A stretch of DNA of 58,301 bases from the NCBI GenBank assembly GCA_035536535.1, contig DATLNZ010000086.1, positions 1-58,301 on the forward strand, in the 5' to 3' direction. The stretch is from Actinomycetota bacterium. Its GTDB lineage: Bacteria > Actinomycetota > JAICYB01. Every line of letters begins with the position of its first letter. Within the stretch, counting starts at the first letter, position 1. The notes beneath the pieces were generated by a model. It did no database searches and was not told where the DNA came from. It saw only the letters and a program-made list of their open reading frames with translations. A program made the translations under genes and the position numbers. Shown here piece after piece: positions 15,285 to 29,483 of this stretch.

Positions 15285-16256
15285 ATGTATCCGGTCCAGC
15301 GCCCACGCCGGCTTCGGCGGACGGAAAGCCTGAGGGCAATGGTGCGCGAGACGCGGCTCGCGCCGGAGCAGCTCGTAGCGCCGCTGTTCGTCAAGGAGGG
15401 CATAAGGGAGCCGGAACCGGTGGCTTCGATGCCCGGCCACTACCAGCACACCGTGGAGTCGCTGACCAAGACGGCGCGGGAGATCTACTCCAAGGGTGTG
15501 CGCGCGTATCTGCTGTTCGCGATCCCCTCCCGCAAGGACGGTGCGGGTTCCGAGGCCCACGCTCAGGGGGGCATCGCCCAGAGAGCTCTCGCAGCGCTGC
15601 GCGACGAGATCGGCGCGGACGCGACCTGCATCGCGGACCTGTGCCTGTGCGAGTACACCGACCACGGACACTGCGGCATCCTGCGGCCGGACGGAAGCGT
15701 CGACAACGATGCGACGGTCGAGGCCTATGCCATGACGGCGGTCGCGCAAGCCCGGGCCGGAGCGGCCGTTGTGGCCCCCTCGGGGATGATGGACGGACAG
15801 GTGGGCGCGATCCGCAGGGCCCTGGACTCGGCGGGGCACGCCGAGGTGGCGGTCATGGCCTACTCCGCCAAGTACGCTTCGGCCCTCTACGGTCCGTTCC
15901 GCGATGCCGCGGAGTGCGCTCCACGGTCCGGTGACAGGTCGGGCTACCAGATGGACCCTTCCAACGTCCGGGAGGCCCTGCGCGAGGTGGCGCTGGACGT
16001 CGCGGAGGGAGCCGACATCGTGATGGTCAAGCCGGCCCTTTCTTATCTGGACGTCGTCAGGGCGGTCAGCGAGGCGTCCCCCGTGCCCGTCGCCGCTTAT
16101 CACGTGTCCGGGGAGTACTCGATGGTCAAGGCGGCGGGGGCCGCCGGATGGCTGGACGCCGACAGCGTCGCGATCGAACATCTGACGTCGATCCGACGGG
16201 CCGGCGCGGACATCGTGATCACCTACTTCGCCCAGGACCTGGCGGACCGCCTTTGA
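15285..16256 (+). CDS. hemB: porphobilinogen synthase (delta-aminolevulinate dehydratase), Zn-type
   Basis: RPRRLRR, PLFV.EG, cysteine-rich zinc site DLCLCEYTDHGHCG, and the active-site MVKPA lysine. Confidence 0.95.
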   Translation: MYPVQRPRRLRRTESLRAMVRETRLAPEQLVAPLFVKEGIREPEPVASMPGHYQHTVESLTKTAREIYSKGVRAYLLFAIPSRKDGAGSEAHAQGGIAQRALAALRDEIGADATCIADLCLCEYTDHGHCGILRPDGSVDNDATVEAYAMTAVAQARAGAAVVAPSGMMDGQVGAIRRALDSAGHAEVAVMAYSAKYASALYGPFRDAAECAPRSGDRSGYQMDPSNVREALREVALDVAEGADIVMVKPALSYLDVVRAVSEASPVPVAAYHVSGEYSMVKAAGAAGWLDADSVAIEHLTSIRRAGADIVITYFAQDLADRL

Positions 16257-17566
16257 CCTACCCATCGACGCCGGCCCACGCGGGGGTGGCGGGGAGCCGG
16301 GCGATCTTCGAGCGCGCGCGGGAGCTTTTGCCCGGCGGCGTTTCGTCGCCGGCTCGCGCGTTCGCGGCCGTGGAGGGCGACCCCGTCGTTGCGGCGTCCG
16401 GGACCGGTTCCCGGCTGACCGACGCCGACGGCCGCGAGTACCTGGACTACATCCAGGGCTTCGGGTCGATCATCCTCGGGCACGGAGACCCCCTTGCCAC
16501 ATCGGCGGTGCAGAAAGCGGCCGGTCGCGGAGCAGTCTTCGGCCTGACGACGGCCGACGAGGTGAAGCTCGCGGAGATGATCGTCGAGGCGATTGCCTCG
16601 GTCGAAAGGGTGCGTTTCCTCGCCAGCGGCACGGAGGCGGGGATGACCGCCGCCCGCATAGCCAGGGGGGCCACCGGCAGGCCGGTCATCGTCAAGTTCG
16701 AGGGGTGCTACCACGGCCACGCCGACGAGTTTCTGGCCAGTGCGGGGTCCGGAGTCGCAACTTTCTCGATCCCCGGGACGTCCGGCGTCCCCGCCTCGAG
16801 CGTGTCGTCGACGATCGTCCTGCCCTACAACGACCCGGCCTCGCTGCGGTCCGCTTTCGAGGTCCACGGACAGGACATCGCGGCGGTGTTCGTAGAGCCG
16901 GTGGCGGCGAACATGGGAGTGGTCATCCCGCAGGCGGACTTCCTCCTGGCGATCTCGCAGCTGTGCGCGCAGCACGGCGCGCTGTGCGTGTTCGACGAGG
17001 TGGTCACCGGGTTCCGCATCGGCCGATCGGGAGCCCAGGGCGCCTTCGGCCTCCAGCCGGACCTCACGATGTTCGGAAAGGTGGTCGGGGGCGGGCTGCC
17101 GGTGGGCGTCGTGGGCGGACGGGCGGAGCTCATGGACCTGCTGTCCCCGGTCGGGCCGGTCTACCAGGGCGGGACCTACGCTGCCCACCCCCACGCGATG
17201 GCCTCCGGGACAGCGGTGCTCGAAGTCCTCACAGAAGGCTTGTACGCGGATCTGGAGCGGACGGCCGCAGCCCTGGAGGAGGGTCTGGCCGAGGCGGCGG
17301 CCTCCGCGGGGGCTCAGGCTTGCGTCGTTCGGGCCGCGACGATGCTGTCGGTGTTCTTCACGCCATCGCCGCCCCGTGACTTCGCCGAGGTTCAGGCGGG
17401 CGATCGGAAGTCCTTCGCGCGGTTCCACGCTTCACTGCGCGAGCAGGGCGTGCTGATCGCGCCCTCGCCCTACGAGGCGTGGTTTCCGTCGGCATCCCAT
17501 TCCTCCGCCGACGTCGAGGCAACGGTGGCCGCCGCGGCGATCGCCTTCTCGTCCTCGTCTGCCTGA
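16253..17566 (+). CDS. hemL: glutamate-1-semialdehyde 2,1-aminomutase
   Basis: LPGGVSSPARAF, GFGSIILGH, YHGHAD, FDEVVTGFR, and GKVVGGGLPVG (the PLP lysine). TTG 16253 overlaps the hemB stop (TTGA). GTG 16286 is an alternative start. Confidence 0.9.
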   Translation: MTYPSTPAHAGVAGSRAIFERARELLPGGVSSPARAFAAVEGDPVVAASGTGSRLTDADGREYLDYIQGFGSIILGHGDPLATSAVQKAAGRGAVFGLTTADEVKLAEMIVEAIASVERVRFLASGTEAGMTAARIARGATGRPVIVKFEGCYHGHADEFLASAGSGVATFSIPGTSGVPASSVSSTIVLPYNDPASLRSAFEVHGQDIAAVFVEPVAANMGVVIPQADFLLAISQLCAQHGALCVFDEVVTGFRIGRSGAQGAFGLQPDLTMFGKVVGGGLPVGVVGGRAELMDLLSPVGPVYQGGTYAAHPHAMASGTAVLEVLTEGLYADLERTAAALEEGLAEAAASAGAQACVVRAATMLSVFFTPSPPRDFAEVQAGDRKSFARFHASLREQGVLIAPSPYEAWFPSASHSSADVEATVAAAAIAFSSSSA

Positions 17567-21767: not shown

Positions 21768-21814
21768 CCCTAAACTTGTGGACAATCAAAATACGGCGAA
21801 CGGCGGGAAAGAGG

Positions 21815-22261
21815 ATGAGGTTCACGCAACGCACCGAGTACGCCGTCAGGGCGATGCTCCACTTGGCGCGACAGGCAGGGACGGGCCCCACGACGGCTCG
21901 CGAGATTGCCGGCGCCCAGCAGATTCCGGTCCGGTTCCTGGAGCAGGTGCTTCAGGAGCTGAAAAGGGCCGGTCTCATCAACAGCCAGCGTGGAGCCGCG
22001 GGTGGTGCATGGCTCTCGCGCGGCCCGGCGCTCATCACGGTGGCCGAGGTGGTGGATGTGGTGGAGGGGCCTGTGGTGAAGCAGGCCTGCCTCGACCCGT
22101 TTGACGACGGGGCGGGGGTCCAGGCTCATTCGGCCGTGCAGGAGCTGTGGCTCGACCTGCAGATAACGATCCGCGACCGCCTGTCGCAGGTGACCCTTGA
22201 GGACCTCGTGCGGCGCCAGGACGAGCTGGACCGGTCGTCGTACCTCGTCTTCCAGATCTAG
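21815..22261 (+). CDS. Rrf2-family transcriptional regulator (single Cys, probably cluster-less)
   Basis: MRFTQRTEYAVRAMLHLA...REIA..Q.IP.RFLEQVLQELKRAGLI.SQRG..GG: the canonical Rrf2 winged helix. RBS GGGAAAGAGG before the ATG. Confidence 0.85.
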   Translation: MRFTQRTEYAVRAMLHLARQAGTGPTTAREIAGAQQIPVRFLEQVLQELKRAGLINSQRGAAGGAWLSRGPALITVAEVVDVVEGPVVKQACLDPFDDGAGVQAHSAVQELWLDLQITIRDRLSQVTLEDLVRRQDELDRSSYLVFQI

Positions 22262-23040
22262 CCGGACGCGATCTGCGGGGTGAGCCGCTCGCGGGTCCGT
22301 GCGAACAAGATCCCCACCGGCCGGGCGAGAAGGACCACCAGCGGAACGTTCACGAGGATCGCCCGGCCCACGTCCCACGGCAGCGACGTCAAGGTGTAGA
22401 AGCGGAGAAACCGGGACAGCGTCTCCCCCATCCCAGCGCCCGCTTGAAACGAGACGGGGCCCACATCCGCAAGGAACGGCCAAAACCACAGCGTCATGAC
22501 CAGGCCGTACGCGAACGAGGACACCCCCGCGTACACCCCCAGCGCCGTACGCTCCATCCGGCCCCGCAGGACCCCGGCGAGGATTCCTGCGCCTGCCCCG
22601 ACCCAACCCAGGGCGAACATCTGGAACGGCAGCCAGGGTCCGACTCCGCCCGTCATCACCCCCGAGACCAGCATCGTGAACGCGCCCAGCAAAAAGGCCA
22701 GCCCGGCCCCGAGCGTCCATCCCGCGAGCACCGGAAGCACGAACACGAGGCTTTCGCCGCTGGGGCCTTTGGGGATGCGCAGCACCGAGTTCACGGCCAC
22801 GAGGGCGCCGAGCAGCGCCACGAGCCGGGCGTCGCCGGATCTGCGCGCGGTCGTCACGGCCACCAGGATCAATAGCGGGACCGCGAGCGCCAGCAGGACG
22901 GGAGCGTCGCCCGCATGGGCGCCGCGCTCGGAGCTGATGCGGGTTCCCAGGAGCAGCGGCCAGCAGAAGGCAGCCACCCCCGCGGCGTTCACGACGATAA
23001 AGGCCAGTCTGCGGACCCACCGCTGGGCGCCGGCCCTCAT
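22258..23040 (-). CDS. ECF-transporter substrate-capture (S) component-like membrane protein
   Basis: 260 aa from ATG 23040, which overlaps the ATPase stop (ATGA). About 6-7 TM helices. Last gene of the riboswitch-controlled ECF operon. The upstream 137 codons in the track are a frame artefact. Confidence 0.65.
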   Translation of the reverse strand: MRAGAQRWVRRLAFIVVNAAGVAAFCWPLLLGTRISSERGAHAGDAPVLLALAVPLLILVAVTTARRSGDARLVALLGALVAVNSVLRIPKGPSGESLVFVLPVLAGWTLGAGLAFLLGAFTMLVSGVMTGGVGPWLPFQMFALGWVGAGAGILAGVLRGRMERTALGVYAGVSSFAYGLVMTLWFWPFLADVGPVSFQAGAGMGETLSRFLRFYTLTSLPWDVGRAILVNVPLVVLLARPVGILFARTRERLTPQIASG

Positions 23041-24593
23041 GACGCTGCCATCGCGGCCAGGACGTCCTCCGGTGTCAGATACCGCGGGTCGCTCATCACC
23101 TTGCTCGTCTGCGAGCTGAACAGCAGCGAGTCGCCCAGGACCTGTCCCGTCGGACCGTCCGCGACGATCGCTCCGTCTGACATCAGCAGGACCCGGTCGG
23201 CCACCCGTGCGACCAGCTCCACGTCGTGCGTGACCAGCAGCACCGCCGTCCCACGAGCGGAGGCCTCGGCCAGCAACTGGCCGAGCAGCGACTTGGCCGG
23301 TGGGTCCAGCCCCCGGGTGGGCTCGTCCAGCAGCAGGACGTCGGGAGACCGCGCGAGAACCGTGGCGAGCGCGGTCCGGAGGCGCTGCCCGGAGGACAGC
23401 GACCAGGGATGACGCGAGGCCAGGTCGGCCAGGCCCAGGCGGCTCATCCATGCGCGGGCGGCGTCGCCGGACCCGGCCGCCGAAGCTATCTCCGCCAGCA
23501 CCGTTTCCCTGAACAGCAGAGCCTCCGCCCGCTGGGGCAGAAAGGCGACCCGGTCGAACGTCGGCGGGCGCCCGTCCACCTCGACCCGGCCCGCGGCCGG
23601 CGTCGCGAGTCCGCAGAGGGTCCGCAGCAAAGTGGTCTTGCCGGACCCGTTGCGTCCAATCAGCGCGGCGATGCGTCCGCGTTCCAGGTCAATCGACAGG
23701 TCGTGGATGACGTCCCGGCCCCCGGCGCGCACGCGCAGACGTCCGGCGCGCAGGATCGTCCGGCCGGGCGAGCGGTGCGGTGCCGCGGCCGGCCTGGTCC
23801 GGACGGCGGTTGCGAACCGGCGCCCTTCGCGGACGGTGAGCGGTAGCGGCGACCAGCCCAGCGCCCGGCCCAGGACCGTCACCGGCGGCGCGAACTCCGT
23901 CTGGGCGAACGCATTGCGGGGATCCGCCACCAGCGGAGGGCGCCCGGCGGCGAGGTGGCAGACACGGTCGGCGAACCCCGCGACCCGCTCCAGCCTGTGC
24001 TCCGAGCACACGATCGTGAGCCCGAACTCGTCCCGCAACCGGACCAGCGACGACAGGACGTCCTCGGCGGACTGGGGGTCCAGCGACGACGTCGGCTCGT
24101 CCAGTACCAGCACCTTCGGCTGGGCGGCCAGGACGGCGGCTACGGCCACGCGCTGGCGCTCCCCTCCGGACAGCGTGTCCAGCCTTCGGTCGCGCAGGTG
24201 TGCGATTCCCATGGCGTCGCACACCTCCTCGATTCGCTTCCGCATCGAGATGGGGGCCACCCCCAGGTTCTCCATCGCGAACGCCAGCTCCGGGACCACG
24301 CGGTCGGCCGTCGCGTGTGACTCCGGGTCCTGCGGGACGAAGCCGACGGTGTCGGCCAGCTCGCGGGGAGGCCGCCCCGTCACGTCCACGCCACCGATCC
24401 GGACTTTGCCGCTGAACCGCCCGCCGGAGTAGTGGGGGACGAGTCCGTTGAGCACACGCAACAGGGTCGATTTCCCCGACCCGGACGCTCCGGACACGAG
24501 GAGGAACTCGCCGTCCGCCACCTCCAGTTCCAGGTCCTCCAGGACGGGTGAGCCGCCCGGGTAGGAGAAGGTGACGCGTTCCAGTTGGATCAT
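23037..24593 (-). CDS. ECF transporter ATPase, fused tandem ABC domains (EcfA-EcfA')
   Basis: Two complete ABC cassettes: GASGSGKST / LSGGERQRV / LVLDEPTS and GRNGSGKTT / LSSGQRLRT / LLLDEPTRGLD. ATG 24593 overlaps the EcfT stop (ATGA). Confidence 0.9.
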   Translation of the reverse strand: MIQLERVTFSYPGGSPVLEDLELEVADGEFLLVSGASGSGKSTLLRVLNGLVPHYSGGRFSGKVRIGGVDVTGRPPRELADTVGFVPQDPESHATADRVVPELAFAMENLGVAPISMRKRIEEVCDAMGIAHLRDRRLDTLSGGERQRVAVAAVLAAQPKVLVLDEPTSSLDPQSAEDVLSSLVRLRDEFGLTIVCSEHRLERVAGFADRVCHLAAGRPPLVADPRNAFAQTEFAPPVTVLGRALGWSPLPLTVREGRRFATAVRTRPAAAPHRSPGRTILRAGRLRVRAGGRDVIHDLSIDLERGRIAALIGRNGSGKTTLLRTLCGLATPAAGRVEVDGRPPTFDRVAFLPQRAEALLFRETVLAEIASAAGSGDAARAWMSRLGLADLASRHPWSLSSGQRLRTALATVLARSPDVLLLDEPTRGLDPPAKSLLGQLLAEASARGTAVLLVTHDVELVARVADRVLLMSDGAIVADGPTGQVLGDSLLFSSQTSKVMSDPRYLTPEDVLAAMAAS

Positions 24594-25456
24594 CGGCGGG
24601 TCCGGGCGAGGTCCGCCACAACCGGTGCCGCGAAAAGCAGAGCGGGCAGGCAGGCGGTGAGCGCGAACACTGGAGCTGTGATTCGGGGATAGGCGGTCCA
24701 CGCGCCGGGGGCGACGACGCGTGCCGCGACTACCGCACCTACGGCCGCCGAGACGATCGCGACGTCCGCGGTTCTGAACCGCGCCGGGGCCATCCGGGTC
24801 ACCCGCGGGCGGCGCCGTCCGTAGCCCCTGGAATCCATGGACTCCGCGAGCAGAAAGGCACGCTCCAGGCTCAATGCAAGGATCGGGACGGCCAGCGACG
24901 GCGCGAGGCGGGTCCGCCCCCGCTCGCCGCGCATCTTCTGTGCGTCGCGTACGTCCGCCGCCGCGGCGAGCACGCCCGGCACGAACGCCAGCGCGATCGC
25001 CACGACCAGCCCCGCTTCACGGGTCACCGCCGGCACGGCGCGTACGGCGGCCGAGAAGTCGATGCGCGAGTTGAACTCCCCGAAGGCGGCCAGCACCAGC
25101 ACCAGGCGCAGTCCTTCCAGCGCGCTCTCCGCGACCACCTCGGCGGTCACCCGGCCCCCGAGCCCGAAGCCTCCCGCCCACGAGGGCAGCGCGAGGCGGG
25201 GAAGCGAGAACAGTGTCGTCTGGCCCGGATTGGGCAGCAGTGCGGTGAACACCAGACGGAACCCGAGGACGACGATGGCCGCGACAAGAAACGTCCTCAT
25301 GGGCCGCACTCGCGCCGCCGGATCCTCGGGGGCCGACAGGTGCACGAGCAGGACCGCGCTCAGCGCCGTCGCCAGGGCATAGGGGTTGGAGACCGCGAAC
25401 GCGTAGACGGAGCAGGCTGTGAGCCAACCGGCCCAGGCCAGCGTGTGGACCCTCAC
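24590..25456 (-). CDS. ECF transporter transmembrane (T) component, CbiQ/EcfT family
   Basis: 288 aa from GTG 25456, overlapping the upstream stop (GTGA). Polytopic, with the characteristic LAESMDSRGYG (A..x..RG) coupling-helix motif. Confidence 0.8.
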   Translation of the reverse strand: MRVHTLAWAGWLTACSVYAFAVSNPYALATALSAVLLVHLSAPEDPAARVRPMRTFLVAAIVVLGFRLVFTALLPNPGQTTLFSLPRLALPSWAGGFGLGGRVTAEVVAESALEGLRLVLVLAAFGEFNSRIDFSAAVRAVPAVTREAGLVVAIALAFVPGVLAAAADVRDAQKMRGERGRTRLAPSLAVPILALSLERAFLLAESMDSRGYGRRRPRVTRMAPARFRTADVAIVSAAVGAVVAARVVAPGAWTAYPRITAPVFALTACLPALLFAAPVVADLARTRR

Positions 25457-27057
25457 GAGTGCCCGCCGGCCCGTCTGATCCGCAGGCGCCGGGCCGACAG
25501 ACCGGCGGCCACCGCTGCCAGCGCACCTCCGAACAGCACCGGCGCGACCGCGGAGCGACGCTCCGGTGGCGGCTGTGCGTCGCGGCCGGCGGGGGGCGTG
25601 CCCGGGCCCCCGGAGCAGACCTCCTCGACACCTGCATCCGGCGGCTCCGGCTTGCCGTCGCGGCCCCACGTCCATGCGTCGACCGATCCGTCGCGGACGA
25701 CGCGGGCCGCGGCTCCCTGCGAAGAGAATGTCCAGCCGGATCCACGGTCGCGGGTCCAGTAGCCCCAGAACTCGGGGTATCGGCAGAAGCACCCGTCCGA
25801 CTTTGAGCATCCGTGGGGGCCGATTCGGCAGATCGCGGACCCCATCTGCCCGGACTCCACCACGAGGTCCGGGGCCAGCCGGGACAGCAGGTCCAGTCCC
25901 GTGATCTCGGCCTCGTCGAACACCAGGCACAACCGCCGGACCCGGCCGTCCGGGTCCCGCAGGACCAGCCCCGCCCTGTTGCGGCCGGCAGCCTTTGCCG
26001 TGGGCGACGCACCCGGGGCGGCGCTCGCTGTCGCTTTGCGTCCTCCCGCGGGAGCCACGGACGCCCGGGCGCCCGGGGCGGCCCCCGATCCGGTTCCGCC
26101 GGCCTGGTCCCGGCCGGCCGTTCCCCTCACCGGCAGCGCTGCGCCGGACACGCCCGTCACCGCCTGGACGGTGGCGTAGTCGTTCGGGCCTTCGCCCGCG
26201 ACGTAACGGAAGCCGCCCGACGGGTGCTGCAGCGACAGCAGCGCCTTCACGCCGTCGCCTCCTCCGGGCGCCTGCCAGGGCGCATCCGACGGGTCCTCTC
26301 CCAGGGTCGCCACGGCGGACAGCACGAGAGCGGTCGAGTTCGCGTTGGTCGGCTTGCCCACCTCCAGGCCCCAGCCGCCGGACGGGTTCTGGGTGCGCAT
26401 GAGGTGGCCACGTCCGCCGGAGACGGCGTCGTCCTGCCGGCTGAGCCCGGCGGCCAGCAGCGCCGCCAGCATCGTGGCCGTCGTGTCCGCGTCGGGCGCG
26501 GCCGCGCACGCCCGCCGGTGGGACCACCCGCCCGACGCGCACCGGTTGTCCCGCGCGTAACGCAGAGCCTGCTCGGGGACCGGCCGCCGGGCGGCCGCCA
26601 GCGCGAGCACCGCCAAGGCGTGCCCGTACAGCGACTCCCGGTCGTAGGACCCGGTGGAGGAGTCGATCGACGACTCCAGCCGCGCCGCGTAGTCGAAGCC
26701 CCCGAAGGACGCAGGATCGCGACCGGCGGCGACCAGCCCCAGGACGATGCGGCCTGCGTACGCCGCCTTTGTCGCGCGCTCCGGCCCCCGCGACTCCACA
26801 TAGTCCAGGGCGCGGGCCCGTGAGTCGGAGGATGTCCCGGCCGCGGCGAGCGCGACCACGACCTCCGCCACCGCGTCGGCCGGGTGGTCGGGCGTGAAGA
26901 ACGCGCCACTGTCCTGCTGTCTCGCGGACAGGTAGCCCGCGCCCCTTGCCGCCGCCTCAGAGCCGGGTGAGGCGGCGGCGGGAACCGGCTGGAGGACCGT
27001 TGCCGTCAGACAGCAGACCGCGATCGCGATCCTCAGCAGAGGACGCCGGGACCCCAT
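25453..27057 (-). CDS. secreted, C-terminally anchored protein: prenyltransferase/squalene-oxidase-repeat alpha/alpha toroid fused to a DUF4430-like beta domain
   Basis: Signal peptide LLRIAIAVCCLTATVLQPVPAAAS. Repeats QQDSGAFF, CASGGWSH, TQNPSGGWG, LQHPSGGFRY. Gly/Ala linker. Then EFWGYWTRDRGSGWTFSSQGAAARVVRDGSVDAWTWG (DUF4430-type). Terminal TM VAPVLFGGALAAVAAGL followed by RRLRIRR. Confidence 0.8.
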   Translation of the reverse strand: MGSRRPLLRIAIAVCCLTATVLQPVPAAASPGSEAAARGAGYLSARQQDSGAFFTPDHPADAVAEVVVALAAAGTSSDSRARALDYVESRGPERATKAAYAGRIVLGLVAAGRDPASFGGFDYAARLESSIDSSTGSYDRESLYGHALAVLALAAARRPVPEQALRYARDNRCASGGWSHRRACAAAPDADTTATMLAALLAAGLSRQDDAVSGGRGHLMRTQNPSGGWGLEVGKPTNANSTALVLSAVATLGEDPSDAPWQAPGGGDGVKALLSLQHPSGGFRYVAGEGPNDYATVQAVTGVSGAALPVRGTAGRDQAGGTGSGAAPGARASVAPAGGRKATASAAPGASPTAKAAGRNRAGLVLRDPDGRVRRLCLVFDEAEITGLDLLSRLAPDLVVESGQMGSAICRIGPHGCSKSDGCFCRYPEFWGYWTRDRGSGWTFSSQGAAARVVRDGSVDAWTWGRDGKPEPPDAGVEEVCSGGPGTPPAGRDAQPPPERRSAVAPVLFGGALAAVAAGLSARRLRIRRAGGHS

Positions 27058-27485
27058 GGCGTGTAGGCGAACGACAGCACGTCGCCCTGGGACGCGCGGA
27101 AAAAGTCGACACCCTGCTCAGACGGGAGCCCGTTTTCGTGCATCGCCCAGTACCAGCATCCGGCGCCCAGCGGGTCGCCGCCGCCGCAGACGGAGTCGAC
27201 GCAGTCGACGAAATTGCCCAGTCCGGGGAACGCCGACAGCCGGTAGGAGTCCAGACACCCCGAATCGACCGCCGCGTCAAGAACCGCGACGCCGTCGGCG
27301 CCGTCGGCTACGGACACCGCACAGACCGCGGCGGCTTTGCCCGACCCATGGGTGGCGGGGCCGGGTCCCGATGCCGTCACCGTCATCTGGACGGACGACG
27401 ACGCGTGGGCGGGAGCCGCCATAAAGGCGGCAAGCAGCAACAAAGCAGTGACAACTGACAGGGCACGACGAAATGCGCGGGTCAC
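27033..27485 (-). CDS. secreted DUF4430-domain (transcobalamin beta-domain-like) protein
   Basis: Signal peptide ALSVVTALLLLAAFMAAPAHA. Core CWYWAMHENGLPSEQGVDFFRASQGDVLSFAY matches the DUF4430 W.Y.vNG...G......l.dGD.i.w.Y pattern. GTG 27485 sits 8 nt after AGGAGG; the track start 27494 overlaps the SD. Confidence 0.75.
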   Translation of the reverse strand: MTRAFRRALSVVTALLLLAAFMAAPAHASSSVQMTVTASGPGPATHGSGKAAAVCAVSVADGADGVAVLDAAVDSGCLDSYRLSAFPGLGNFVDCVDSVCGGGDPLGAGCWYWAMHENGLPSEQGVDFFRASQGDVLSFAYTPWGPGVLC

Positions 27486-27529
27486 GCGCTCCACCTCCTC
27501 GTTCCTCGAAGGAGTAACTGGAGCCCTTG

Positions 27530-27695
27530 TGACGGCGGGTCGTCCTGGCTTGCGGGGAGACCACTGGGTCCCCCGCTCACAGTTGCGGGTCAGCGCCGGA
27601 CTCTCACCGGCTTCGCCACTTGCGTCCCGGGCATCCGGACCCGGAACGCCGCCACTCAGCTCTACTGCCGGACGAGGATACGCCCCGTCCGCCTA
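27530..27695 (-). promoter_or_regulatory. cobalamin (B12) riboswitch
   Basis: The minus strand reads GGCGAAGCCGGUGAGAGUCCGGCGCUGACCCGCAACUGUGAGCGGGG (27617->27571), then AGCCAGGACGACCCGCC (27550->27534), with closing helix GGCGG (27693->27689) / CCGCC. This matches the invariant core and 3' box of the cobalamin riboswitch family. Confidence 0.85.
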
Positions 27696-27757: not shown

Positions 27758-28969
27758 TCAGCGCCCGGGGGTCGAGGCGGGCCGCGACGCTTTGGGCGCC
27801 GGTTTCAGGGCAGCCTCGGTGTACTCGTTGTCGGCGTTCCACAGCAGCCATTGGTCCACCCCGGCCTCCTCGGCGGCCCGGATCTGATCCTGGACGTGGC
27901 GGGGCGAGTACTTCACGCGCAGGGAAAAGTCCTGAAGCCACGGGCGCTGCCGCGCCTGCGTCCCCGCCATCTGCTCCTTCCCCTTCTCCAATGCGTTCTT
28001 GATCGTCTCGTAGGGGCTGGATTCCGGGTCCCTGAGGCCGTAGTTGCCGCGGGAGTAGTGGGAGGGGTAGATCATCAGCGACACGTAGTCGACCTCGGCG
28101 GCGATGACGCTCAGCGTCTGACCGATACCCGGGTCCTCCACCAGCGTCACGAACCCGAAGAGGTCGGCGGACACGTACGCTCCCATCGGCGCCAGCTCCG
28201 ACTTGGCGCGTCTCAACACGTCCCTGATGACCTGGGGCGGCTCGCGGACGTCGCGGTGCCGGTACCACATGTTGTCCACGGCCCCGTCGGTCGGAAAGCG
28301 GACGTAGTCGAACTGGATCTCGTCAAAGCCCAGTGTGACCGCCTCCCGTGCGAGCTCGAGGTTGTACTCCACAACCTCACGGGAGTACGGGTCACCCCAG
28401 CTGAGGTCTTTCCGGTCCTTCCACACGCCCCCGCGCAGGTCCTGCACCGCCAGGTCCGGCCGGGCCTTGGCCAGCACGGTGTCGTTGAAGGTGACGATGC
28501 GGCCGATGACGTAGACGCCGTGTTCCTTGAGCGTGCGCAGGGTGGCCCGGGGGTCCTTCATCTTCCGGCGTCCCCCGCCGATTGCCACGGCCCTCGGCGA
28601 CGTCGGGATCCAGGAGACCTCGCCGGACTCGTTTTTTATGTCGATGACGACCGCGTTGAGCTCGGTGCGGTCCAGGAGGCCCAGCAACTTGTTGAAGTTC
28701 TCCCCCCCAGCCGAGTAGCCGGTCATCGTGATCCCCTTGGCTTTTGTGGGAGCGGGGCGCTCGCGCCTCAGGGTGGGGGTTGGCTTGGGAGTCGCCCGCG
28801 CCGCCAGGACGCGGGGTCGCGGTGAAGCGCTGGGCCGGCGACCCGGCGCCCGGTCGGGCGCCCCAGCCGCCGGCGTCCGTCCGGAGGAGAACAGGGGCGA
28901 CGTCGGAGGCGCGACCATAAAGGCCGCGATCACGAGGGCTGTCAGGACGAGGGCGCGCTGATAGAGCAT
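27758..28969 (-). CDS. putative glycoside hydrolase, DUF4015-type TIM barrel, membrane-anchored/secreted
   Basis: N-terminal anchor ALVLTALVIAAFMV and a Pro-rich linker. Then NAVVIDIKNESG, VYVIGRIVTFND, GFDEIQFDYVRFP and YPSHY segments typical of this family. Confidence 0.65.
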   Translation of the reverse strand: MLYQRALVLTALVIAAFMVAPPTSPLFSSGRTPAAGAPDRAPGRRPSASPRPRVLAARATPKPTPTLRRERPAPTKAKGITMTGYSAGGENFNKLLGLLDRTELNAVVIDIKNESGEVSWIPTSPRAVAIGGGRRKMKDPRATLRTLKEHGVYVIGRIVTFNDTVLAKARPDLAVQDLRGGVWKDRKDLSWGDPYSREVVEYNLELAREAVTLGFDEIQFDYVRFPTDGAVDNMWYRHRDVREPPQVIRDVLRRAKSELAPMGAYVSADLFGFVTLVEDPGIGQTLSVIAAEVDYVSLMIYPSHYSRGNYGLRDPESSPYETIKNALEKGKEQMAGTQARQRPWLQDFSLRVKYSPRHVQDQIRAAEEAGVDQWLLWNADNEYTEAALKPAPKASRPASTPGR

Positions 28970-29033: not shown

Positions 29034-29483
29034 TCAGTGGCCCCGGCGATCCAGGGCCCGCAGCTTGGACAGCCTCCTCGCGTGCCGTTCCTCGCCGCTG
29101 AACCGGGCCCCCAGAAAGGCGATGACGATCTCCCGCGCCAGCTCGACCCCCGTGACCCTGGCGCCCAGGGCGAGCACGTTCACGTCGTCATGCTCGACGC
29201 ACTGCCGGGCCGTGTAGGTGTCGTATACGGGCGCAGCGAGGATGCCTTCGAACTTGTTGGCCGCGATGCCGGCCCCGGCGCCCGAGCCGCACACGACTAT
29301 GCCCCGGTCCGCTGTGCCGTCCAGCACACACCTGGCCACGGCGGCCGACTGGTCCGGGTAGTCGACGGGCTCGGCCGAGTGGGTGCCGAGGTCCATCGGT
29401 TCGTGTCCTGACGCCTTCAGCAGCCCGACGAGTTCGTTTTTGAGCTCGAACCCCGCGTGGTCGGCTGCTATCGCGACTCTCAT
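29034..29483 (-). CDS. rpiB: ribose-5-phosphate isomerase B
   Basis: MRVAIAADHAGFELK, GIVVCGSGAGAGIAANK, NVLALGARV and ERHARRL: the canonical RpiB/LacAB pattern. Confidence 0.9.
   Translation of the reverse strand: MRVAIAADHAGFELKNELVGLLKASGHEPMDLGTHSAEPVDYPDQSAAVARCVLDGTADRGIVVCGSGAGAGIAANKFEGILAAPVYDTYTARQCVEHDDVNVLALGARVTGVELAREIVIAFLGARFSGEERHARRLSKLRALDRRGH

Follow-up and report, generated by a model that had tools for sequence, protein, structure and literature searches.

Bacterial counterparts of the animal vitamin B12 carriers were brought together when Burroughs, Balaji, Iyer & Aravind defined a transcobalamin-like clade of SLBB beta-grasp domains (2007, Biol Direct 2:4, PMC1796856). 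In bacteria these domains occur in secreted or surface proteins, which often also carry an alpha/alpha toroid, N- or C-terminal to the beta-grasp. Their genes lie in operons with CbiO-like ATPase and CbiQ-like membrane genes, and a single operon often encodes several SLBB proteins. A role in scavenging B12 or its precursors was predicted for them, and animals were proposed to have acquired transcobalamin from Gram-positive bacteria (PMC1796856). Here we describe a 534-amino acid (aa) protein of the same concept, encoded in a 58,301-nucleotide (nt) stretch of an Actinomycetota bacterium (GCA_035536535.1, contig DATLNZ010000086.1; the whole stretch is called the window below), together with the operon of its gene. 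This protein is probably the membrane-tethered, extracytoplasmic substrate-capture subunit of a B12 riboswitch-repressed energy-coupling factor (ECF) importer for corrinoids (cobalamin, or incomplete ones like cobinamide).

The protein shares with the clade of Burroughs et al. a surface location, a toroid fusion and CbiO/CbiQ-type genes downstream. The focus of that work was on members from Gram-positive bacteria (largely low-GC) and archaea, detected through transcobalamin sequence searches (today's DUF4430). In contrast, our protein carries an SCO2322-type beta domain that lacks a match to the DUF4430 model PF14478 and is tied to transcobalamin by predicted structure only. The B12-scavenger idea, implied to be new in a preliminary description of this DNA, is thus supported at the level of fold and context, with corrinoid binding predicted, but was already published in 2007 (PMC1796856). 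What we add is threefold. The fused beta domain belongs to a very large, Cys-rich SCO2322-type family that DUF4430 models miss and that lies, by predicted structure, beside the transcobalamin beta domain; an actinobacterial and chloroflexal ECF system is tightly linked to B12 riboswitches; and some lineages appear to encode a second, free DUF4430-type protein.

Two described ECF systems are close to this locus. The Lactobacillus sakei operon Lsa1836-1840, tied to heme uptake by a deletion mutant and docking (Verplaetse et al., bioRxiv 10.1101/864751), also encodes an S component, a fused A-A' ATPase, a T component and exported transcobalamin-like alpha and beta modules, and in the model proposed for it, too, the substrate is first captured outside the cell and then passed to the S component. 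There, Lsa1839 (beta-like) and Lsa1840 (alpha-like) are separate proteins and the substrate is heme, whereas here the two modules are fused and membrane-anchored; unlike in L. sakei, a second free beta-like protein and a B12 riboswitch are found in the present operon. The same study notes that, in the usual description, ECF transporters work without soluble binding proteins. The second system, ECF-CbrT of Lactobacillus delbrueckii, is an ECF-type importer for cobalamin and cobinamide (eLife 2018, PMC5997447; structure 6fnp).

Many bacteria need B12 without making it, and its extracellular capture by Gram-positive or monoderm bacteria is poorly known; to our knowledge, ECF-CbrT has no known extracellular capture protein. 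The present locus offers a clean test case, in which a riboswitch and a dedicated ECF module accompany a fused alpha plus beta ectodomain and another, free beta-type protein. By linking the very large, uncharacterised SCO2322-type family to the transcobalamin beta fold, it bears on the proposed bacterial origin of the animal B12 carriers and on whether ECF transporters can use extracytoplasmic binding proteins. Its value lies in confirmation and in a well-defined experimental target, not in discovery.

A B12 riboswitch-headed ECF operon and its relatives

The elements of the operon are as follows, in the order of transcription.

27517..27668, minus strand: cobalamin riboswitch aptamer at the head of the operon (Rfam RF00174, 62.6 bits, gathering score 31.5, E 3.9e-13, full model 1-189)
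27033..27485, minus strand: small secreted Cys-containing protein, 150 aa, predicted divergent DUF4430/transcobalamin-beta-like (GTG start, GAGGAGG ribosome-binding site)
25453..27057, minus strand: 534-aa protein with signal peptide, alpha/alpha toroid, linker, beta-grasp domain and transmembrane (TM) anchor (open reading frame (ORF), homologues, AlphaFold2 model)
24590..25456, minus strand: ECF T (CbiQ/EcfT-like) transmembrane component (Pfam CbiQ, E 0.0025; PDB EcfT 5d3m_D, E 0.0016)
23037..24593, minus strand: fused A-A' double ATPase of the ECF transporter (two ABC_tran domains, E 5.7e-58; ECF_ATPase_2, 307 bits)
22258..23040, minus strand: predicted ECF S membrane component (Pfam ECF_trnsprt PF12822, E 1.1e-6, 29.2 bits)

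The riboswitch, which the preliminary description had placed upstream of the 534-aa gene, is indeed present there and is the sole Rfam element in the whole window. It ends 32 nt ahead of the GTG of the first operon gene. The starts and stops of the five minus-strand genes that follow overlap or abut, and these genes are predicted to be translationally coupled: the GTG start of the T gene overlaps the stop of the 534-aa gene, and ATGA overlaps join the ATPase gene to the T gene and the S-like gene to the ATPase gene. From the riboswitch and this order (small secreted DUF4430-like protein, 534-aa protein, T, fused A-A', S-like component) we therefore take the 534-aa gene to be the second gene of a B12 riboswitch-controlled ECF-type importer operon.

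All constituents of an ECF transporter are encoded side by side: the T component, a pair of ATPase domains and, by prediction, the membrane S component. The T component weakly matches the EcfT chain common to the 5d3m and 6fnp (ECF-CbrT) entries and is conserved in related loci. The A-A' ATPase also scores 248 bits against the cbiO subfamily (cutoff 211.8); the names CbiO and CbiQ are historical labels for ECF A and T modules generally. The S-like gene is conserved with T and A-A' in 15 related loci. A cell-surface protein had been proposed, and this agrees with the signal peptide and TM anchor of the 534-aa protein and with the continuation of the operon into the ECF T, A-A' and S-like genes.

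Related loci were then collected from one genome per species. We found 25, in Actinomycetota (metagenome-assembled genomes, Phycicoccus, Lentzea, Catellatospora, Nocardioides and Actinokineospora) and in Chloroflexota. Cultivable carriers include Phycicoccus jejuensis (L017) and P. avicenniae (L022). A cobalamin riboswitch lies just upstream, on the same strand, in 16 of these 25 loci, and at least one further locus (L001) ends before the expected riboswitch position. As a genome of this kind has roughly ten B12 riboswitches in several megabases, chance placement would give far less linkage than this. The toroid, the SCO2322-type domain and the T, A-A' and S genes are syntenic in most loci, the SCO2322-type domain being present in 23/25, while gene and domain order vary. 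Among relatives, beta-toroid, beta-beta-toroid, beta-toroid-toroid and toroid-beta arrangements were all observed. Such variable order suggests a functional pairing of the two domains rather than a fixed scaffold. In one relative (P0029), the ECF S component is fused directly to the toroid. The 150-aa gene is restricted to the five closest loci (L001-L005).

In Catellatospora methionotrophica (L015) and Lentzea tibetensis (L012), the toroid gene and the ECF module with the SCO2322-type domain stand on opposite strands, and in the former it is the toroid gene that follows the riboswitch. Division of the system over more than one transcription unit is therefore possible.

Predicted folds of the two exported proteins

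The 534-aa ORF is exactly that of the preliminary description, and the identical product was independently called as protein P0001. Its parts were delimited as follows.

26971..27057, minus strand: signal peptide, residues 1-29 (read from the sequence; AlphaFold2 helix 7-21 at low predicted local distance difference test score, pLDDT)
26098..26967, minus strand: alpha6/alpha6 toroid, residues 31-320, SCO2321-like, four QW-like repeats (AlphaFold2, NCBIfam, profile search, Foldseek)
25984..26097, minus strand: Gly/Ala/Pro-rich flexible linker, residues 321-358 (pLDDT below 50 at 323-357)
25630..25983, minus strand: Cys-rich beta-grasp domain, residues 359-476, SCO2322 family, predicted transcobalamin-beta-like fold (AlphaFold2 pLDDT 94.9, Foldseek)
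25492..25548, minus strand: C-terminal TM anchor, residues ~504-522, then RRLRIRR (hydrophobic stretch VAPVLFGGALAAVAAGLSA; AlphaFold2 helix 509-530)

All these parts are retained in ten full-length homologues of 39-65% identity. Residues 1-29 are signal-like, with an n-region SRRPLLR, a hydrophobic core and a PAAA|SP end, and the N-termini of the homologues are comparable. The hydrophobic stretch and Arg run at the C-terminus are kept in 10/10 homologues, whereas sequence and length of the linker differ between them. The full-length AlphaFold2 model has a mean pLDDT of 86 and a predicted template modelling score (pTM) of 0.63, and contains a second disordered spacer at residues 486-510. The signal peptide, the Gly/Ala/Pro linker (disordered in the model) and the terminal TM helix with its RRLRIRR tail were thus recovered as first described.

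Within residues 1-29 (window 26971-27057), the SRRPLLR stretch also resembles the twin-arginine (Tat) consensus S/T-R-R-x-F-L-K. An RR pair ahead of the hydrophobic core occurs in homologues P0007-P0010 as well, not in P0003 and P0006. For an ectodomain rich in disulfides, export by the Tat route, in a pre-folded and possibly ligand-loaded state, would be unusual.

The N-terminal alpha6/alpha6 barrel first read from the repeats was borne out by the model, in which residues 31-320 form 12 helices at pLDDT ~97. Four or more QxxxGG(W/F) repeats had been counted there; four QW-like repeats do exist, but just two are strict (QNPSGGW at 223 and QHPSGGF at 277), the other two being degenerate (RQQDSGAF at 46 and RCASGGW at 172). 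The toroid matches Pfam SQHop_cyclase_C (23.6 bits), SQHop_cyclase_N and Prenyltrans, all slightly below threshold, and NCBIfam SCO2321_fam (NF053823) with 88.4 bits (E 4.5e-25; curated cutoff 300 bits). Compared with the PDB, the toroid family profile found squalene-hopene cyclase (E 2e-32), drimenyl diphosphate synthase (E 1.7e-24) and single-domain cyclases (E about 1e-16 to 3e-18); transcobalamin and haptocorrin were not matched in this search, and intrinsic factor was reached at E~1. Because of this difference between cyclase and intrinsic factor, we place the toroid, as far as sequence goes, in the QW-repeat terpene-cyclase/prenyltransferase superfamily and not in eukaryotic Cobalamin_bind.

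The motif D189-A-D191-T-T-A (window 26485-26499) aligns with the catalytic DVDDTA of squalene-hopene cyclase. The catalytic DxDD acid motif of class II terpene cyclases is absent from the toroid at the aligned D189-A-D191-T192: the third Asp is Thr or Ser in every homologue (Thr192 in our protein). An equivalent DLDTT is found in another repeat of squalene-hopene cyclase (~residues 66-120), away from the catalytic DVDDTA. For these two reasons we take the motif to be a property of the repeats, and it does not speak for catalysis.

The conserved DxD[TS]TA of the toroid family also aligns with the DxDDTA of drimenyl diphosphate synthase. Other invariant polar residues of the toroid are R103, D114, D122, R169, D209, R216, N240, T242, W261 and Q298; together with the C173/C184 pair, the invariant polar residues might line a ligand funnel.

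The C-terminal domain (~118 aa) was modelled separately from an alignment of 55 sequences and reached the pLDDT listed above. Its element order is beta-beta-alpha-hairpin-beta-beta, with strands and helix assigned by DSSP as E2-9, E15-22, H29-36, hairpin E41-45/E48-54, E71-78 and E101-108. By this secondary-structure string it has a beta-grasp core with a hairpin inserted after the helix, the arrangement given by Burroughs et al. for the transcobalamin-like clade. Foldseek against the PDB gave a consistent picture: the best 17 matches, which include 3u7z, haptocorrin (4kki), transcobalamin (7qbe, 8ixu, 2bb6 and 2bb5) and the human transcobalamin beta domain (5np4), have probability 1.00, E 8e-5 to 7e-3 and TM-scores (TMq) of 0.55-0.64. 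The next tier consists of generic beta-grasps (UBX, ubiquitin-like, staphylococcal Eap/SSL) at E>0.03 with mostly lower TM-scores (0.29-0.50). The sequence profile of the domain found no PDB match at E<=10.

The best of these structural matches is RUMGNA_00854 of Ruminococcus gnavus (3u7z; E 8e-5, TMt 0.78), a stand-alone protein of ~96 residues and 16% identity, deposited as a 'putative metal binding protein' and without published function; its shorter length suggests that the Cys-rich loop of our domain is missing from it.

In sequence the domain belongs elsewhere. NCBIfam SCO2322_fam (NF040672) is matched by 129 of 144 beta-domain relatives, and by our domain with 19.2 bits (curated cutoff 85). 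Scores so far under the SCO2321_fam and SCO2322_fam cutoffs make the 534-aa protein a relative, not an equivalog, with superfamily homology nonetheless clear; we read it as a fusion of an SCO2321-like toroid and an SCO2322-like domain. Both families (the former named as a membrane protein) take their names from Streptomyces coelicolor genes and are here joined in one polypeptide. No functional paper on either family was found in the literature searched, nor any functional study of DUF4430 or of a prenyltransferase-type protein linked to a cobalamin riboswitch and an ECF system. Among 1.84 billion representative proteins, the beta-domain profile matched 2933 representative clusters at E<=1e-3 and 1733 at E<=1e-10. 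Most are proteins of 150-450 aa in which the domain comes right after the signal peptide, with a Pro-rich spacer and a TM helix behind it; some relatives have tandem copies (up to 5), and in some one or two copies precede a toroid.

Tandem arrays comprise 5 copies in P0084 (775 aa) and 3 in P0038, and some beta-beta-toroid relatives carry additional adhesin-like domains (DUF7507, DUF11 repeats); P0084, P0038, P0040, P0042 and P0155 exemplify these tandem and multidomain architectures, which suggest large multivalent surface binders. Homologues P0003, P0004, P0008, P0010, P0018 and P0024 carry the precomputed Pfam accession PF28005, which coincides with the SCO2322-type domain and may be a newly made Pfam family. 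As it is the sole Pfam accession listed for P0024, where only that domain is recognised, PF28005 probably covers the SCO2322-type domain.

Six cysteines are nearly invariant in the beta domain. Among 167 domain copies they are lost pairwise, 377 with 481 and 417 with 425, while 410 and 423 are kept together, a pattern that suggests three disulfides and an extracytoplasmic location. The same co-loss disfavours a metal or Fe-S site. The signal peptide, the TM anchor and a co-loss consistent with three disulfides are the reasons why we place the domains outside the cell.

The full-length model was compared with the animal carriers by Foldseek, as the preliminary description had proposed, and both folds were matched. 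Transcobalamin, haptocorrin and intrinsic factor aligned over 470-490 columns (E 2.4e-9 to 3e-7) across both domains in the same order; the single-domain terpene-cyclase-like 8pak and 8paj gave similar E-values over ~350 columns, covering the toroid only. The transcobalamin-like two-domain architecture first put forward was thus upheld both by the beta domain alone and by the full-length model. Like the animal proteins (Pfam Cobalamin_bind; 2bb5, 4kki, 2pmv), ours has an N-terminal alpha6/alpha6 barrel, a linker and a C-terminal beta-grasp, and all are extracellular and linked to B12, binding being predicted in our case. The differences are several: structural alignments show just 13-17% identity, with no detectable sequence similarity; our protein has a longer, disordered linker and six conserved cysteines in the beta domain; it is membrane-anchored whereas the animal carriers are soluble; and it would feed a bacterial ECF importer, whereas they use receptor-mediated endocytosis. 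The nearest relatives of the toroid by sequence profile, and among the best structurally, are class II terpene cyclases (squalene-hopene cyclase 1gsz; drimenyl diphosphate synthase 7xq4; single-domain 8pak/8paj; E 2e-32 to 1e-16), which share the QW-type repeats and a DxD-T-A at the DxDDTA position. Unlike these enzymes, the 534-aa protein is exported and contains just one toroid, in which Thr takes the third acidic position; it carries a beta-grasp on the same chain and stands in a transporter operon with a B12 riboswitch.

The small protein encoded first in the operon has a signal-like N-terminus ending AHA|SS, and its gene overlaps the 534-aa gene by 25 nt. It had been called a stand-alone DUF4430 paralog. 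The ORF is real; it has no direct Pfam or NCBIfam match, even at E<=10, and its relatives P0035-P0037 (~46-52% identity) match PF14478 with 19.4 (P0035), 22.3 (P0036) and 25.9 bits (P0037), the last exceeding the gathering score of 23.8. Because its relatives match DUF4430, one of them above the gathering score, we assign the 150-aa protein to that family as a probable divergent member. Its family profile also weakly matched the haptocorrin beta domain (4kki residues 350-433; E 0.21). Paralogy was not borne out: hhalign between the beta-domain family and the 150-aa family gave a probability of 0.3% with 10 sequences and 4.9% with 55, the second colinear over 97 columns, suggestive but not significant. 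The two may share a fold, and they are not demonstrable paralogs.

Matches of the 150-aa profile to designer pentatricopeptide-repeat entries of the PDB (E~1e-9) were discarded as an artefact, the sum of ten ~2.5-bit repeat matches. The 141-aa DUF4430-like secreted relative P0036 is publicly labelled 'imidazole glycerol phosphate synthase subunit HisF', an evident mis-annotation.

Proposed ligand and mechanism, and alternative readings

A scheme of corrinoid capture can be drawn from these elements. At low intracellular coenzyme B12, the riboswitch would permit expression of the five coupled genes. The 534-aa protein would be exported and held at the membrane by its C-terminal helix, and its toroid and disulfide-stabilised beta-grasp, on a flexible tether of ~38 residues, would enclose a corrinoid between them, in the manner of the two transcobalamin domains. 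From there the ligand would pass to the S component, and the T/A-A' module would carry out its import. The product of the first gene, the secreted DUF4430-like protein, could act as a second beta-grasp corrinoid binder, either pairing with the toroid in trans or serving as a diffusible collector.

Several observations weigh against this scheme. In sequence, neither the 534-aa protein nor its C-terminal 215 aa matches PF14478 at E<=10, and the same model is matched by 0 of the 144 beta-domain relatives at E<=0.01. Of the DUF4430-type domain (FWGYW...DGSVDAW) originally proposed, the fold is therefore retained, through the top Foldseek matches, and the sequence family is replaced by SCO2322: the predicted structure of the domain is DUF4430/transcobalamin-beta-like. 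Similarly, Pfam Cobalamin_bind (PF01122) finds no match in the protein at E<=10, and the toroid profile reaches intrinsic factor only at the insignificant value given above. In structure, the root mean square deviation to transcobalamin is 16-19 Å and, with the pTM of 0.63, the relative orientation of the domains is not predicted by the model, which neither shows nor excludes a ligand cleft between toroid and beta domain; a differing orientation is expected, because the model is an apo form with a 35-residue disordered tether. In the transporter, the S assignment appears to be the weakest link of the ECF identification. The S-like protein scores 1.5 bits below the PF12822 gathering score of 30.7 and has no pairwise similarity to any of the PDB chain sequences, the ECF-CbrT entry 6fnp included. 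As to the ligand, cobalt transporters too are commonly under B12 riboswitches; L. sakei, where the one analogous system studied by experiment is found, links it to heme and not to B12; and we found in the literature searched no biochemical proof of corrinoid binding by any bacterial transcobalamin-like member.

A more elaborate version of corrinoid capture is conceivable, and we put it forward tentatively: a three-part extracellular relay in which the secreted DUF4430-type protein would be a diffusible 'corrinophore', the tethered toroid and SCO2322-type domain a docking and hand-over station, and the S-like protein the representative of a new S-component family. If so, there would be a widespread ECF subclass, in Actinomycetota and Chloroflexota, dependent on substrate-binding proteins, and the SCO2322 family with its 2933 representative clusters would be a major unrecognised B12-binding branch related to the animal transcobalamin beta domain.

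Import of a metal instead, cobalt (or nickel) for de novo B12 synthesis, with the extracellular proteins as metal- or metallophore-binding accessories and their cysteines as ligands, we consider unlikely. It would agree with the established association of B12 riboswitches with cobalt transporters, with an ATPase above the cbiO subfamily cutoff and a T component weakly matching CbiQ, with the deposited name of 3u7z and with the six nearly invariant cysteines. However, a CbiM/CbiN-type component was not found, and the S-like protein matches the generic ECF_trnsprt family; the pairwise loss of cysteines fits disulfides and not a single metal site; and a 290-residue toroid plus a beta-grasp is oversized for an ion, the architecture matching that of B12-sandwiching transcobalamin.

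The system could also import a different tetrapyrrole such as heme, its toroid and beta-grasp pair binding heme as proposed for Lsa1839/Lsa1840, a reading we regard as distinctly improbable. The L. sakei operon with split transcobalamin-like alpha and beta proteins was indeed studied as a heme uptake system (bioRxiv 10.1101/864751), hemB and hemL lie in the window about 6-10 kb from the operon, and ligand specificity is unreadable from the fold. Against these points, a cobalamin riboswitch controls this operon and 16/25 related loci, hemB and hemL serve tetrapyrrole synthesis in general and belong to transcription units other than the operon, and a bacterium's own heme synthesis lowers the need for import. 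We know of no heme systems under B12 riboswitches.

Finally, the toroid might be an active enzyme outside the cytoplasm, of a class II terpene-cyclase-like or prenyl-binding kind and working on an envelope lipid, with an incidental ECF link; this reading was rejected as highly implausible. The cyclase relationship of the toroid, its QW-like repeats and the alignment of D189-x-D191-T-T-A with DVDDTA would speak for it. Against it, the third Asp of DxDD is replaced family-wide, the motif has an equivalent in the DLDTT of another squalene-hopene cyclase repeat, the protein is an exported one tethered on the outer side of the membrane, an S component is fused to the toroid in one relative, and across two phyla the toroid is fused or adjacent to a transcobalamin-beta-like domain in a conserved ECF operon with B12 riboswitches.

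Surrounding genes

The window is 69% G+C and otherwise holds ordinary actinobacterial chromosomal genes, among them hemB, hemL, trehalose synthesis, GroEL, UvrD, an Rrf2 regulator and a DUF4015 hydrolase. No cob/cbi genes were found among the window ORFs scanned. The following genes lie nearest to the operon or bear on tetrapyrroles.

15285-16256, plus strand: hemB (ALAD, E 8e-139), early tetrapyrrole synthesis
16148-17566, plus strand: class-III aminotransferase consistent with hemL, early tetrapyrrole synthesis
21776-22261, plus strand: Rrf2-family transcriptional regulator (E 3.5e-35), converging on the operon with a 4-nt overlap with the end of the S-component gene
27758-28969, minus strand: DUF4015 putative glycosyl hydrolase with signal/TM N-terminus (E 2e-103), upstream of the riboswitch
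29034-29483, minus strand: 149-aa ORF adjoining the DUF4015 gene

The product of the 149-aa ORF presumably resembles RpiB/LacAB-type sugar-phosphate isomerases. Both this ORF and the DUF4015 gene appear unrelated to the operon.

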